24,000 bases of DNA, from NCBI GenBank assembly GCA_002729495.1, contig PBYE01000061.1, forward strand, positions 2,629 through 26,628, read 5' to 3'. Both the position numbers and the translations under genes were made by a program. The notes under the pieces were generated by a model. The model made no database searches. It was not told the DNA's origin and saw only the letters and a list, made by a program, of their open reading frames with translations. The stretch comes from Chromatiales bacterium. GTDB lineage: Bacteria; Pseudomonadota; Gammaproteobacteria; Steroidobacterales; GCA-2729495. This document shows positions 18,417-22,211 of the stretch, piece by piece. The stretch's first letter is position 1; each line of letters opens with the position of its first letter.

Positions 18417-18446
18417 ATTAGAAATTCTGCGATAAAAATTTCTAAT
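18417..18446. promoter_or_regulatory. Perfect 10-bp inverted repeat (ATTAGAAATT-N10-AATTTCTAAT), a candidate operator between fimT and the Irr-like gene
   Basis: The two arms are exact reverse complements. Each arm contains TTAGAA/TTCTAA. The left arm also forms the palindrome GAATT-AGA-AATTC (18415-18427). Confidence 0.45.
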
Positions 18447-18479
18447 ACAAGTGACTTGAAACAAAAATTGCGTGAGGCA

Positions 18480-18509
18480 TTTACAGTCGTCTCGGCATGT
18501 GGCTAAAAT
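18480..18509 (+). promoter_or_regulatory. Candidate sigma70 promoter of the Irr-like gene
   Basis: TTTACA (18480-18485), an 18-nt spacer, then TAAAAT (18504-18509). This supports the ATG at 18535 (Shine-Dalgarno GGGGGA) rather than the upstream ORF-track start. Confidence 0.4.
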
Positions 18510-18534
18510 GACCGCGCAGTTATCTCGGGGGACG

Positions 18535-18948
18535 ATGACAGTGGAATATAAACAGCAGGTCGAACAACAATTACGTTCCAGCGGTGTCCAGCCAACGAAG
18601 CAACGTATGGAAATAGGAATATTGTTGCTCGCCACTCCGCAACACATGTCAGCCGATCAGATTCTTGGAGAGCTACGTACAGCAGGTAGCCGGGTTTCCA
18701 AGGCAACTGTGTACAACACTCTCAATCTGTTTGCATGCCGTGGCCTGGTTCGTGAAGTGTCGGTTGACTCAACTCGTCAGTTCTTCGATTCCACAATTCA
18801 TCCGCACCATCATTTTTATAATATCGACACGGGCAAACTAACGGACATAGGTATAGACGAACTCGAGTTCAGCCAGTTGCCGGAACTGCCTTCCGGTACG
18901 GAAGCGCAAGACGTCGAAGTCATCGTTCGCGTCCGGAACAAGCACTGA
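18535..18948 (+). CDS. irr: Fur-family regulator of the Irr (iron response regulator) type
   Basis: 137 aa. It has the Fur winged helix (PTKQRMEIGILLL...SKATVYNTLNLFACRGLVREV) and no CxxC zinc motifs. It has a HPHHHF triple-His motif and, as I recall the sequence, is colinear with Bradyrhizobium Irr (...ATVYNTLNQL..GLLRQVSVDG...FDTN..HHHYY...). Confidence 0.7.
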   Translation: MTVEYKQQVEQQLRSSGVQPTKQRMEIGILLLATPQHMSADQILGELRTAGSRVSKATVYNTLNLFACRGLVREVSVDSTRQFFDSTIHPHHHFYNIDTGKLTDIGIDELEFSQLPELPSGTEAQDVEVIVRVRNKH

Positions 18949-19034
18949 CCCAAATCACTCCGTTCCAAAGGCGATTGGTGTCGGGTAACCGGCCCGATTG
19001 CCGGACTTTGTAACTCCCCCTATACTTCGCCCCA

Positions 19035-19051
19035 CGCCGGGGTTCCCGGCG
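19035..19051 (+). terminator. GC-rich hairpin, a possible weak terminator after the Irr-like gene
   Basis: CGCCGGG-GTT-CCCGGCG followed by GCGTTTCT. The T tract is poor. Confidence 0.25.
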
Positions 19052-19065
19052 GCGTTTCTAAATAT

Positions 19066-19141
19066 GCCGGAATAGCTCAGGTGGTAGAGCATCTCATTCG
19101 TAATGAGGAGGTCGGTGGTTCGAGTCCACTTTCCGGCACCA
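19066..19141 (+). tRNA. tRNA-Thr (anticodon CGU)
   Basis: A manual cloverleaf fold works: acceptor GCCGGAA/TTCCGGC, D stem GCTC/GAGC, anticodon stem TCTCA/TGAGG with loop TT-CGT-AA, T arm GGTGG-TTCGAGT-CCACT, discriminator A, and an encoded CCA. Confidence 0.93.
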
Positions 19142-19157
19142 AAGTTATTGAGAAGTA

Positions 19158-19354
19158 CGGCTGTGGCCCTAGCGGAGCTGGGGCCAGGGCCGACTTCGAA
19201 AAACTTTAAGGACTTGGCAGCCGTAGCTGGCTATATCTAAAGCACTCAGATCGCACTTTTCACCAGATTCGGTAGGGCTATGGCCCAAGCATTGCTTGGG
19301 TCGGGACCCTAGTTTGAAAAATTTTAAGGACTTGGCAGCCCGTCTTGGCTATTC
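19158..19354 (+). repeat. Two direct copies of about 80 bp, spaced about 117 bp apart, of a hairpin-containing element just downstream of tRNA-Thr
   Basis: Copy 1 spans 19158-19236 and copy 2 spans 19275-19354. They share GGCT(G/A)TGGCCC, a hairpin (19167-19183 CCCTAGC-GGA-GCTGGGG; 19284-19300 CCCAAGC-ATT-GCTTGGG) and a near-identical block GAAAAA(C/T)TTTAAGGACTTGGCAGCC. Confidence 0.65.
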
Positions 19355-19660
19355 CTGATTGGTTCAAACACACTTCTCCCAAGCTTTCAGAATGGACACG
19401 GAATATGTTTCCTGCAGCACCCATCCTAACCCCTTGATTCTTGGCCGATACCCCATTTTTCTCACCCATATGAATGATTCTAAGTGCTTGCTGCACTTGC
19501 TAAGTTGTGTTCATGCAAACGGTGCTGCGCCTTTGGAGTTCAGTCGCAGCAGCCAGGAGTGAAATGTGAGATTCGCTCCCTGACCGGATGCAACGAGTGC
19601 AGTCGGGTCCATGACCTGAATCTTAGAGGGAAATTCTTCCTATATTGAATTTCCTCCTTT

Positions 19661-19686
19661 GCCCGCTTACCCGCGGGCATTTTTTT
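19661..19686 (+). terminator. Rho-independent terminator closing the non-coding tract
   Basis: GCCCGC-TTACCC-GCGGGC followed by A + TTTTTTT. A second hairpin precedes it (GGAAATT...AATTTCC, about 19626-19657). Confidence 0.75.
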
Positions 19687-19787
19687 GCCTGATGGATGGG
19701 GCGGACGCCCCGATTGACCTTTAGTCAGGCCTCTTCCAGACTCGAGTCGGATTCAGGCATACGAGTTTGTATACGGAGGAATGCGTC

Positions 19788-20708
19788 ATGCGCCAGAAAA
19801 TGCGCAAGAATAATAACAATCGGGCAGTGATTACCGCAGGCCTGGCAGCCTTGGCGCTGGCCTTCCTGGCGACGTCCGTCTATGCGGGCGCTCACGAAGG
19901 GAGTGCGGGCACGCTGGGCAAGGAAGATCGCGTCATGCTCAGTACCTTCATGGAAGATTTCGTTACCGGGATGGATGCGAAGTACTTCGGGCGTGTTGAG
20001 CAGATGAACGGCGGCATCGAATTCGAAGACCGCTTTGTCGAAGGCGAATACGGAGATTACAAACTCAGGGTTGCCCGCGGCGAGATCATGGAAAAGGCCG
20101 GTCGCATGAACACGATCGGCAGGATAAATACAAGGGGCGAAGGCGTGCTGACCTGGGGCAAGTTCTATTCCCTCGATATGCATCCGAAGACCCCGCTGGT
20201 CGGCATGTTGCATGCAACGATTGTGTTGCAGATGTTCGAAGACGGCTCGGTGGCCACGGGAGGCTGGCTGGGCGTTATGCCGGGTGCGAAAGTCGAAGAA
20301 GACCTGGCGTTACTGAAAAAGCTGACTGATGACTATTTTGCAGCGCACGACAAGGACCCGGCGCTCTACCGGCGACTCATTTGCAAAGGCACCGAAGACA
20401 CGATTGCGGAGTTCAGGCGCAAGCCGGCCTGTTCGGGCGTGAGTTTTTACGGTCCGCCGGTTTACAGGGGTGACCCCGAAGCATCCATAAAGTTTATTGC
20501 CGGGCTGTTTGACGAGTTCGTGGACGCGTACATAGACATTACCGAAAAACGTTCCACCGAAGGTTTTACCGAGGCTGATCTTGCCGCCCAGGAAAAAATG
20601 CGGCGTAACTGGTTAATTGACCAATTGTTTTCAGATCCGTACGCTAAGGCAATCGTGCCTTTCGACGTCTGGAGTTTCGCGAACGTCCCGCCGGTGATTA
20701 AGTTCTGA
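19788..20708 (+). CDS. Exported, divergent coproporphyrinogen III oxidase (HemF)-fold protein
   Basis: The ATG at 19788 has a GGAGGA Shine-Dalgarno. The signal peptide is MRQKMRKNNNNRAVITAGLAALALAFLATSVYA|G. The body is colinear with E. coli HemF: EKAG...N, SLDMHPKTPLVGMLHA (vs SLVVHPHNPYVPTSHA), GGW.G (vs GGGFDLTP), FVDAYIDITEKR (vs YTDAYLPIVERR), EKMRRNWLIDQL (vs LYRRGRYVEFNL), VPPVIKF (vs MPPLVRW). Several canonical catalytic-segment residues are replaced. Confidence 0.65.
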   Translation: MRQKMRKNNNNRAVITAGLAALALAFLATSVYAGAHEGSAGTLGKEDRVMLSTFMEDFVTGMDAKYFGRVEQMNGGIEFEDRFVEGEYGDYKLRVARGEIMEKAGRMNTIGRINTRGEGVLTWGKFYSLDMHPKTPLVGMLHATIVLQMFEDGSVATGGWLGVMPGAKVEEDLALLKKLTDDYFAAHDKDPALYRRLICKGTEDTIAEFRRKPACSGVSFYGPPVYRGDPEASIKFIAGLFDEFVDAYIDITEKRSTEGFTEADLAAQEKMRRNWLIDQLFSDPYAKAIVPFDVWSFANVPPVIKF

Positions 20709-20724
20709 CCTGGCACATCGGCGC

Positions 20725-21351
20725 ATGACAAGAATCCGCCGCCATCTCGGGTTGCTGGTTGCGTCGCTGGTTGCGCTGACGGTCGGTGCATGGCTGGCGC
20801 CTTATGTGACAGCCTGGGAGCGCGTCAGCGTCGTATCTGCCTGGCTGTGCCTGGGATTTCTGGCCTCGGCTTTGCTCATCGGCCCCCTGCAGCGCATTCG
20901 TGGCGATGATCCGCCGCTCAATATTTACCTGCGGCGCGACATAGGTATCTGGGCTGCCTTGCACGGGCTCCTGCATTTTTATGCCGGCAACGTGGTCGCG
21001 ATGAATTCTGTTTACGTGGCAGCCTTCGTGCGTACACCCACGCCGGAACTCCCGGTCACGATTCGCGACCCGTTGTTCTCGTTCGGTGCGACAGCGGGGC
21101 TGGTCATTGCCATTATATTTTTACTGCTGCTGGCGATTTCCTCCGATCGCGCGCTGCGCTGGCTGGGCCCCAAAAAATGGAAATGGCTGCAGCGCTCGGC
21201 GCATGCGTCATTGTGGCTGACGGTAACGCACGGTATCGCGTACCAGTTACTGGAAGCACGAATGCTGCCACTGCTGGCAACAGTTCTGCTGAGTATCTGG
21301 GTTATCGCGACACAAATCCGTGCCCGCCGGGCGGCGAAGCAATTAAACTGA
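20725..21351 (+). CDS. MsrQ/YedZ-like ferric-reductase-type transmembrane (haem b) protein
   Basis: 208 aa with about 5-6 TM segments. It has RRDIGIWAALHGLLHFYAG and SSDRALRWLGPKKWKWLQRSAHASLWLTVTHGIAY, colinear with E. coli MsrQ (RRLLGLWCFAWATLHLTSY; STQAMQRKLGKHWQQLH...PIHY). It starts 16 nt after the HemF-like gene. Confidence 0.65.
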   Translation: MTRIRRHLGLLVASLVALTVGAWLAPYVTAWERVSVVSAWLCLGFLASALLIGPLQRIRGDDPPLNIYLRRDIGIWAALHGLLHFYAGNVVAMNSVYVAAFVRTPTPELPVTIRDPLFSFGATAGLVIAIIFLLLLAISSDRALRWLGPKKWKWLQRSAHASLWLTVTHGIAYQLLEARMLPLLATVLLSIWVIATQIRARRAAKQLN

Positions 21352-21749: not shown

Positions 21750-22211
21750 CTAACCGGCCGCCCGTTTTCCACGCCAGAAAATGATCGCGATAAAGCCCAT
21801 ATAAGAGACAAGCATGAACCAGAACTCGGAATACCCGAGCGTATCGACGCCGTAGCGCGCGATGTTCTCAAAACTGATGAATGTGACCGTGTACACAATC
21901 GCGCCGACCATCGCTCCGATCTGCCAGCCGACACTGCGGCCATGCCCCCTGACACACAAGGCGTACCACACCAACAGGAAATAGAGCGTATAGATTCTGA
22001 GTAGCGGCGACCAGAACTCCGCCTGCTGAAAATAGTGGTTGACCCAGAAGGCACCGGCACCGATGAAGTTGGCGAGCACGTAGCGCCATTCCTCCAGCGG
22101 CTGCCGTAATGCCTTTTCCCAGAACAGCACGAGGAAAATATAGGCAAGCCAGGTTCCGAAAACGAGTTCATAGAACTGAACTGTTCCCTCCCACGCAGGA
22201 TTGATAATCAT
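21750..22211 (-). CDS. Trp/aromatic-rich integral membrane protein (4-5 TM), function unknown
   Basis: 153 aa, hydrophobic with many W/Y/F residues. The coding-like frame is on the same strand as its flanking genes. Confidence 0.6.
   Translation of the reverse strand: MIINPAWEGTVQFYELVFGTWLAYIFLVLFWEKALRQPLEEWRYVLANFIGAGAFWVNHYFQQAEFWSPLLRIYTLYFLLVWYALCVRGHGRSVGWQIGAMVGAIVYTVTFISFENIARYGVDTLGYSEFWFMLVSYMGFIAIIFWRGKRAAG

Follow-up and report, generated by a model that had tools for sequence, protein, structure and literature searches.

An exported HemF-fold protein and an orphan ferric reductase domain protein form a lineage-restricted gene pair in a marine gammaproteobacterium

The 24,000 nt stretch of DNA analysed here (the window; contig PBYE01000061.1) belongs to a metagenome-assembled genome (MAG) of a marine Chromatiales-like gammaproteobacterium, and the same DNA is also present in GCA_036011225.1 and in Tara assemblies. 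It carries two neighbouring genes, one for an exported protein with the fold of the coproporphyrinogen oxidase HemF, the other for a small membrane protein of the ferric reductase domain (FRD) superfamily. The best reading of the locus, to which a probability of about 0.6 is given as a whole, is a lineage-specific two-gene operon in which an exported, non-canonical HemF paralogue has been joined with an orphan FRD unit. In this reading the HemF-like protein belongs to a discrete exported clade of the HemF (PF01218) superfamily and would not be an enzyme of haem biosynthesis, and the pair is an arrangement restricted to three related lineages, not a conserved system. This branch of the superfamily is apparently undescribed, and in the operon it is accompanied by an orphan FRD and preceded by a leader RNA that may be new. 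The features concerned are:

19460-19506, + strand: putative promoter of the leader and operon, conserved across six lineages in alignments
19513-19695, + strand: conserved structured non-coding leader or small RNA (sRNA) ending in an intrinsic terminator (terminator scan, covariance model, conservation)
19788-20708, + strand: exported HemF-fold protein, 306 aa (Pfam/NCBIfam, profile, AlphaFold2 (AF2)/Foldseek, alignments)
19788-19886, + strand: predicted Sec signal peptide of the HemF-like protein, residues 1-33
20725-21351, + strand: six-helix FRD (YedZ/MsrQ/STEAP-like) membrane protein, 208 aa (Pfam/NCBIfam, AF2, Foldseek)

The general view of HemF is of an enzyme without cofactor, found in the bacterial cytoplasm or in eukaryotic organelles and having a single job. 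As a single sequence, the window protein is a marginal member of its family, scoring 29.3 bits with Pfam Coprogen_oxidas (PF01218; gathering score 31.8) and 38.1 bits with NCBIfam HemF (NF003727; cut-off 297), below both cut-offs. The relationship is accepted because profile and fold comparisons both support it. A profile built from 20 homologues matches Leishmania coproporphyrinogen oxidase when compared with the PDB (E=4.5e-8), and an AF2 model built from 57 homologues (pLDDT 85.8, pTM 0.82) matches 19 HemF chains in Foldseek, with TM-scores of 0.52-0.73, E-values down to 1.5e-9 and the best matches at 0.68-0.73. The HemF fold proposed in an earlier, sequence-only reading of this DNA therefore stands, although the Pfam score falls just short of the gathering score. 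Outside HemF, E<=0.001 is reached by PcyA bilin reductases alone; the other bilin reductases and RCCR follow with E-values up to about 0.1. These proteins (PcyA, PebS, HY2 and RCCR), which bind linear tetrapyrroles in the same alpha/beta/alpha sandwich, form a second structural tier with TM-scores of about 0.4-0.5 and a probability of 1.0; they are far less similar to the window protein than HemF is and share no sequence similarity with it, and the enzymes among them need ferredoxin. Clustered at 50% identity, the clade to which the window protein belongs has about 35 representatives with E<1e-30; canonical HemF follows only after a gap in scores, at about 40 bits.

In 56 of 57 homologues a signal peptide can be recognized heuristically by its basic n-region, hydrophobic core and AxA-type or small-x-small site, and the Woeseiaceae members carry lipoboxes, such as LQGC and ISSC, instead of the AxA-type site. 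The signal peptide noticed at the outset in the window protein is thus no artefact of start-codon choice, being family-wide. The open reading frame starts at ATG 19788, preceded by a GGAGG Shine-Dalgarno sequence, with an alternative TTG at 19767. A twin-arginine motif is not present in the signal peptides of the HemF-like proteins, and export is therefore by Sec. By the -3/-1 rule, cleavage is predicted between VYA and GAH, which would leave G34-A35-H36 (nt 19887-19895) as the mature N-terminus. Cys199 and Cys215, both absent from canonical HemF, covary among 66 family members (Cys/Cys in 48, Val/Pro in 12, neither Cys in 4 others and one Cys in 2). Such covariation would be expected of a periplasmic disulfide, which the two residues probably form.

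The family was aligned with canonical HemFs, and human CPOX numbering was applied through the S-L-V-x-H-P-K-N-P...H-x-N-x-R register. The residues of functional importance in human CPOX (bioRxiv 10.64898/2026.07.02.735896) correspond to those of the window protein as follows:

Ser244: Ser128, kept
His248: His132, kept
His258 (catalytic His): His142, kept
Asp400: Asp283, kept
Asn260: Thr144, replaced
Arg262: Val146, replaced
Asp282: Gly162, replaced
Arg401: Pro284, replaced
Gly402: Tyr285, replaced

His142 and Asp283 are present in all 66 members, and Arg is never found at positions 146 and 284, the equivalents of Arg262 and Arg401. At position 162, equivalent to Asp282, 45 members have Gly and 21 have Asp, the latter including all distant paralogues and the Woeseiaceae lipoproteins. 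The motif changes first noted by eye, HATIV for HxNxR, GGWLGVMPG for GGGxDLTP and RRNWLIDQL...SDP for RRGRYVEFNL..YDRG, are confirmed in the alignment. Judged from these positions, recognition of the propionates of coproporphyrinogen by this protein is very unlikely. Since the propionate-recognizing Arg and Asn residues and, in this subclade, the essential Asp are replaced, it would not be an enzyme of haem biosynthesis.

The protein nevertheless shares much with HemF/CgdC/CPOX: the same fold (TM about 0.7), detectable profile homology, the Ser244, His248, His258 and Asp400 equivalents, the RG..EKAG and GG motifs and a C-terminal PP motif. Enough of the catalytic scaffold is retained that it could be an enzyme whose pocket is more hydrophobic. 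It differs from the canonical proteins in being exported, in its covarying Cys pair, in the five pocket replacements and in scoring below the family cut-offs, and its relatives differ in occurring as up to five paralogues per genome, some in tandem; no haem-biosynthesis gene context was found for them. A 2-His-1-carboxylate site (Asp130-x-His132...His142) was considered as a family-defining feature and rejected, as Asp130 is replaced by Ala in 6 of 66 members and by Asn in P0240 and P0231; it is an idea for the subfamily only. A neofunctionalized HemF is known in HemF2 of the tolyporphin cluster, which decarboxylates the ring C/D propionates of protoporphyrinogen IX (PMC10548856). Compared by description, HemF2 offers a precedent for a diverged HemF paralogue with an altered pocket that takes a different tetrapyrrole (PMC10548856), but it is cytoplasmic and encoded in a tetrapyrrole biosynthetic cluster, whereas the HemF-like family is exported and has no such cluster.

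The HemF-like family includes at least 496 clusters at 90% identity. All 65 loci in species-representative genomes are from MAGs, mostly of marine or deep-lake Gammaproteobacteria (Woeseia, 'Chromatiales') and Alphaproteobacteria, and a single alphaproteobacterial MAG holds up to five copies (L020/L034/L035/L054/L060); tandem pairs also occur. Many members are annotated by JGI as coproporphyrinogen III oxidase and by NCBI as hypothetical, and no account of an exported HemF-like family came up in literature searches on periplasmic or HemF-like proteins.

The 208-aa product of the second gene is a member of the FRD superfamily and not an orthologue of MsrQ. It scores weakly with Pfam Ferric_reduct (20.3 bits), reaches 19 bits with NCBIfam MsrQ against an equivalog cut-off of 130, and gave no match in a sequence search of the PDB. 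The AF2 model (pLDDT 93.5) is a six-helix structure whose best Foldseek matches are the transmembrane domains of STEAP4, STEAP1, STEAP2 and NOX5. Among 25 homologues the only invariant His residues are His84 (TM3) and His169 (TM5); application of the positive-inside rule would place both in the periplasmic half of the membrane, where they could hold one haem b. A single outer-leaflet haem would be as in STEAP, whereas the window FRD differs from STEAP and NOX proteins in having no fused NAD(P)H/FAD dehydrogenase domain, in being bacterial and in its length of only 208 aa. Of the original description as an MsrQ/YedZ-like haem-b membrane protein, the six-helix, two-His FRD fold is upheld and the MsrQ orthology is not.

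MsrPQ (YedYZ) is nonetheless a useful comparison, having a six-helix FRD with one haem b held by two His (the haem being inferred for the window protein) encoded directly after a periplasmic protein. The differences are that the window FRD is not an MsrQ orthologue and has no molybdoenzyme partner here, that its periplasmic neighbour is Sec-exported with no known cofactor, and that the pairing is conserved in MsrPQ and not in the HemF-like/FRD case. No msrP gene was noted in the window, nor any recurrent neighbour cluster of molybdoenzyme type in 87 FRD loci, although these results come from gene neighbourhoods and no search with an MsrP sequence or profile was made. The only recurrent neighbours of the FRD subfamily in the 87 loci are a YHS/HMBD Cu-type P-ATPase (about nine loci) and a 153-aa membrane protein. 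Since none of these could be MsrP, and given the low MsrQ score, the suggestion that a usual MsrP partner had been swapped for a HemF-like protein is not sustained. In addition, distant FRD homologues (35-40% identity) lie directly downstream of YHS/HMBD P-type ATPases in L144 (1494-3971) and about eight other soil-metagenome loci, and one (P0190 contig) adjoins CusBA. These neighbourhoods hint that orphan FRDs of this subfamily may act in copper handling.

Co-occurrence of the two genes was examined by tblastn and HMM scans of 62 HemF-like loci, all from outside the window's own species, and of the 87 FRD loci. An FRD was found in a single HemF-like locus, L005, whose HemF-like protein is 85% identical to that of the window, and a HemF-like gene in two FRD loci, L076 (same species as L005) and L075. 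The L075 proteins are about 70% (HemF-like) and 60% (FRD) identical to the window copies, and their genes overlap by 4 nt. With the FRD absent from 61 of the 62 loci and the HemF-like gene from 85 of the 87, the idea of a conserved HemF-like/FRD module is rejected. FRD genes without a HemF-like gene occur in L070, L077 and L078, whose products are 55-59% identical to the window FRD and 68-86% identical among themselves. The same applies to L071 (52% identical), where the synteny of the window is otherwise kept (GspH, Irr-like, ..., FRD, 153-aa, 118-aa, Flavodoxin_2, UbiX, PNPOx). The HemF-like proteins of L006 (76%) and L009 (74%) are closer to that of the window than is the L075 copy, yet have no FRD beside them.

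Where the pair does occur, the linkage is tight. The 16 nt gap between them, pointed out in the sequence-only reading, is confirmed, and a terminator scan found no terminator-like site between the genes. They are probably co-transcribed, in view of this spacing, of the 4 nt overlap in L075 and of a shared upstream element. The latter is a conserved tract (approximately 19430-19695) common to the window, L005 and L075, although the gene upstream of it is different in L075; its 3' domain is also found directly upstream of the stand-alone FRD genes in L070, L077, L078 and L071. Its copies are:

Window, 19430-19695: upstream of the HemF-like/FRD pair
L005, 5620-5896: upstream of the HemF-like/FRD pair
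L075, 2170-2464: upstream of the HemF-like/FRD pair
L070, 4660-4946: upstream of a stand-alone FRD gene
L077, 240-524: upstream of a stand-alone FRD gene
L078, 3660-3944: upstream of a stand-alone FRD gene
L071, 4640-4759: upstream of a stand-alone FRD gene

The 5' part of this tract holds the putative promoter, with a conserved extended -10 (TGnTAnnnT) at 19498-19506 and, at the -35 position, an imperfect, operator-like palindrome of the TCATC-N6-GATGA type that is perfect in L005 and L070. About 180 nt of hairpins follow, and then an intrinsic terminator with its stem at 19660-19679 and a U7 run; across the loci, the distance from this terminator to the first gene is 60-250 nt. Indels in the leader are not multiples of three, and reading frames are broken by them. 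The window leader has a minimum free energy of -70.9 kcal/mol (z = -4.1), and 89.9% of cells are paired in the consensus, against 31-56% in slid controls, with five pairs showing compensatory changes. A covariance model of the 3' domain matches only these seven loci in 870 kb, at 91-118 bits, and a scan with Rfam 15 of the window region, L072 and L077 gave no relevant match to the leader at E<=1. The seven sequences are suggestive of a structured RNA, read here as a leader that attenuates transcription of the FRD unit. The HemF-like gene of the window's subclade is placed exactly between this leader and the FRD gene.

The distribution of the genes could also be explained by accidental adjacency, in which a HemF-like gene landed or survived in the 5' region of an FRD unit and the two products, sharing only their transcription, act independently. 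Each gene is overwhelmingly found without the other, the relatives in L006 and L009 have no FRD in spite of being closer than the L075 copy, and the locus adjoins a tRNA gene and 56-nt direct repeats, as is typical of hot spots of integration. This explanation is unlikely but deserves to be taken seriously; it fits poorly with the order and tight spacing, which are kept and even compacted over 54-60% FRD divergence, and with the position of the HemF-like gene at the exact point that puts both genes under one control element.

If the pair is instead a lineage-specific operon, as preferred here, the HemF-like protein would enter the periplasm via Sec, some of its relatives being lipoproteins, and would most likely bind or oxidize there a planar ligand less acidic and more hydrophobic than coproporphyrinogen. 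The FRD would be an orphan single-haem-b protein with its haem facing the periplasm. In the window's subclade both genes would share a transcript and their regulation by the leader, and electrons may flow from the FRD to the periplasmic HemF-like protein or to its ligand. An exogenous tetrapyrrole is the best guess for that ligand, because every structural relative binds one and because genes of the SOUL haem-binding family adjoin HemF-like genes in two unrelated lineages, L006/L157 (76% identical to the window protein) and L064 (36%). The SOUL genes lie 0.2-3 kb from the HemF-like genes, at:

L157, 103-753: SOUL gene
L006, 2037-2684: SOUL gene
L064, 1638-2204, - strand: SOUL gene

By a rough estimate, about 0.1 such lineages would be expected by chance. 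These are weak hints of a tetrapyrrole ligand. The other neighbours of HemF-like genes include UbiD decarboxylases (4 loci), Rieske/VanA oxygenases (6), PQQ dehydrogenases (4) and FGE-sulfatase-cytochrome c genes (4-5), as well as MFS transporters and housekeeping genes; multi-copy loci (including L016, L033 and L034) are often beside Rieske/VanA, UbiD, PQQ dehydrogenase and MFS transporter genes. Some of these contexts are a hint of aromatic-acid catabolism.

A further-reaching model, following the sequence-only reading, is that of a dedicated periplasmic tetrapyrrole-modifying system, in which the FRD feeds quinol electrons to a HemF-like enzyme in the place of MsrP, under the haem or iron control of the Irr-like regulator encoded upstream. 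The tight linkage (16 nt, or a 4 nt overlap in L075), the shared leader, the predicted periplasmic position of the FRD haem, the handling of tetrapyrroles by the superfamily of this fold, the SOUL neighbours in two lineages and the Irr-like character of the regulator would all fit. The proposal is improbable, however, given that the pair is confined to three related lineages (FRD absent in 61/62, HemF-like gene absent in 85/87), that the FRD subfamily has no recurrent MsrP-like neighbour, that the HemF-like protein leaves the cytoplasm via Sec and has no evident redox cofactor, and that the regulator is poorly connected with the pair. The upstream features on which the last point turns are:

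18535-18948, + strand: Irr-like Fur-family regulator gene, 137 aa (Pfam FUR, NCBIfam); the mechanical open reading frame starts from GTG 18472
19066-19141, + strand: tRNA-Thr (CGU) (ARAGORN; Rfam tRNA 67.9 bits)

Irr is usually regarded as alphaproteobacterial, and its motifs are a haem-binding HxH/HHH and, in the Bradyrhizobium type, a Cys-Pro haem regulatory motif. The Irr-like protein has a Fur-family DNA-binding domain (Pfam FUR, PF01475, 72.4 bits), and among Fur subfamilies IrrA and Irr lead by more than 45 bits, with PerR and Fur well behind, although it falls just below both NCBIfam cut-offs (IrrA 138.5 against 150; Irr 126.4 against 170). Read directly from the sequence against general motif definitions and not a reference alignment, it contains HPHHHF and neither CxxC pairs nor Cys-Pro. 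It resembles the Irr of Rhizobiales and Rhodobacterales in its best matches, in its putative HHH-type motif and in having no CxxC zinc-site pairs; it differs in its scores, in its gammaproteobacterial MAG host, in having no Cys-Pro and in the absence of an iron control element (ICE) box from the window. Its start is probably ATG 18535, because a conserved promoter lies upstream at 18480-18509.

Related MAGs have the gene (conserved at 69-85%) next to a minor-pilin cluster, and in L071 it is found beside the pilin cluster though the HemF-like gene is absent. No match to the ICE box (TTTAGAA-N3-TTCTAAA) was found in the 24-kb window with up to three mismatches. Between the pilin and Irr-like genes there is an inverted repeat at 18418-18445, TTAGAAAT-N12-ATTTCTAA (TTAGAA-N16-TTCTAA), with ICE-like half-sites at a wider spacing; no shuffle of the window gave such a match. 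This palindrome was rejected as an Irr operator, as it is species-specific and not conserved in L005 or L071, and the palindrome of the leader promoter is unrelated to it. The claim of an Irr-type regulator is therefore retained in so far as an Irr-like Fur paralogue lies upstream; control of the pair is not supported, as the gene is kept in L071 without the HemF-like gene, there is no ICE box, and the tRNA gene, a separate promoter and a terminator intervene. The Irr-like and tRNA-Thr genes are syntenic neighbours with no demonstrated role in the pair.

The predicted mature N-terminus would fit another role, in metal handling. The criteria for an amino-terminal Cu(II)- and Ni(II)-binding (ATCUN) motif are a free N-terminus, His at position 3 and no Pro at position 2. 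X-X-His follows the predicted cleavage site directly in about 34 of 57 homologues (GAH, GGH, SGH and SVH, with N-termini read by eye), an ATCUN-type Cu(II)/Ni(II) pattern that lies on a low-confidence flexible tail in about 60% of members; the others have acidic A-D-E-R-L N-termini or are lipoproteins. The pair might therefore capture and reduce copper or iron ions, with the G-A-H tail as the ligand and the STEAP-like FRD as a periplasm-facing cupric or ferric reductase. The closest solved structures to the FRD are indeed the STEAP metalloreductases, distant FRDs are found downstream of YHS/HMBD P-type ATPases and in one case beside CusBA, and the cross-strand residues His132 and His142 match proposed metal ligands of E. 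coli HemF (PMC10548856). Nevertheless, such a function is quite improbable: the tail is missing in many members, the cleavage site is a prediction only, the copper-ATPase link concerns FRDs at only 35-40% identity, and the large HemF domain would be left without a role.

That the HemF-like protein has remained a coproporphyrinogen oxidase, whether its export is a mis-annotation or it acts on an exported porphyrinogen, is scarcely credible: the JGI annotation, the retained catalytic-His, Ser244 and Asp400 equivalents and the GGGxD Asp kept in one-third of the family would suit it, but neither the Pfam nor the NCBIfam cut-off is reached, none of the 66 members has Arg at the positions equivalent to Arg262 and Arg401, the window protein also lacks counterparts of Asp282 and Asn260, and signal peptides or lipoboxes are family-wide.

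The reading of the locus as a lineage-specific operon has its own difficulties. The pair has been kept over considerable divergence (HemF-like proteins about 70% identical, FRDs 54-60%) and is more compact in L075; its retention and compaction would therefore indicate that the adjacency is more than accidental. As the FRD tree is star-like, the HemF-like gene may have been either gained in this subclade or lost elsewhere. Signal-peptide cleavage and the disulfide of the HemF-like protein are predictions, the leader might be an sRNA in its own right instead of acting in cis, and the gene contexts of the family are heterogeneous, ranging from UbiD to housekeeping genes, with none that is tetrapyrrole-specific. 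We know of no member of the HemF-like clade with a known ligand, metal or activity.

A bolder extension of that reading would make the exported HemF-fold proteins a new family, acting in the periplasm as enzymes or carriers for environmental tetrapyrroles (haem, porphyrin or chlorophyll breakdown products), many with an ATCUN copper site at the N-terminus, wired in this lineage to a STEAP-like haem-b reductase and both switched by an undescribed riboswitch-like leader. This is speculative and improbable.

The surroundings of the pair are as follows. A divergent minor-pilin cluster (GspH, PilW, ComP-like) lies upstream of the Irr-like gene. The 625 nt tract between tRNA-Thr and the HemF-like gene holds no credible gene; two small open reading frames in it (67 aa, and a Cys-rich one of 54 aa) were rejected, as indels in the homologous regions are not multiples of three. 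Immediately 3' of tRNA-Thr are two copies of a 56-nt direct repeat (19179-19234 and 19297-19352; 75% identical, 118 nt apart), and similar repeats are carried by L005. These may be an integration remnant at the tRNA gene or a repeated small element. On the 3' side of the FRD gene are two convergent genes, for a 118-aa lipoprotein and for the 153-aa membrane protein mentioned above, and beyond them Flavodoxin_2, UbiX-like, PNPOx, SDR and UbiD genes. The convergent neighbour that recurs is:

21750-22211, - strand: 153-aa membrane protein with no Pfam family, given as context only, a role in the system not being shown

Its gene is the most faithful neighbour of the FRD, with copies 53-86% identical adjoining it in L070, L071, L072, L075, L076 and L078.

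Elsewhere in the family, a lipoprotein version of the HemF-like protein that keeps the GGGxD Asp is found in Woeseiaceae (L022, L025-L030, L032, L036 and L062). In the same loci a conserved DUF2269 membrane protein of about 200 aa, with two invariant His in one helix, is encoded 4-11 nt after the HemF-like gene. This is a second pairing of a periplasmic protein with a membrane protein, unrelated to the FRD; comparison of the DUF2269 partner with the FRD by hhalign gave no relationship (probability 1%). The idea that HemF-like genes are generally followed by one for a membrane redox protein was rejected, as the downstream product is polytopic in 18 of 66 loci, from six unrelated families in six lineages, which is approximately the background rate.

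An exported, probably disulfide-bonded and often multi-copy HemF-like family indicates that the HemF scaffold has been reused outside the cytoplasm for another purpose. The JGI name 'coproporphyrinogen III oxidase' is probably wrong for its members and could inflate metagenome counts of the potential for aerobic haem synthesis. The leader RNA is a separate candidate for a new leader, riboswitch or sRNA. If the ligand of the HemF-like proteins is a tetrapyrrole, the family may have a bearing on the scavenging or detoxification of haem and chlorophyll debris by pelagic and sediment heterotrophs, and hence on their iron acquisition.

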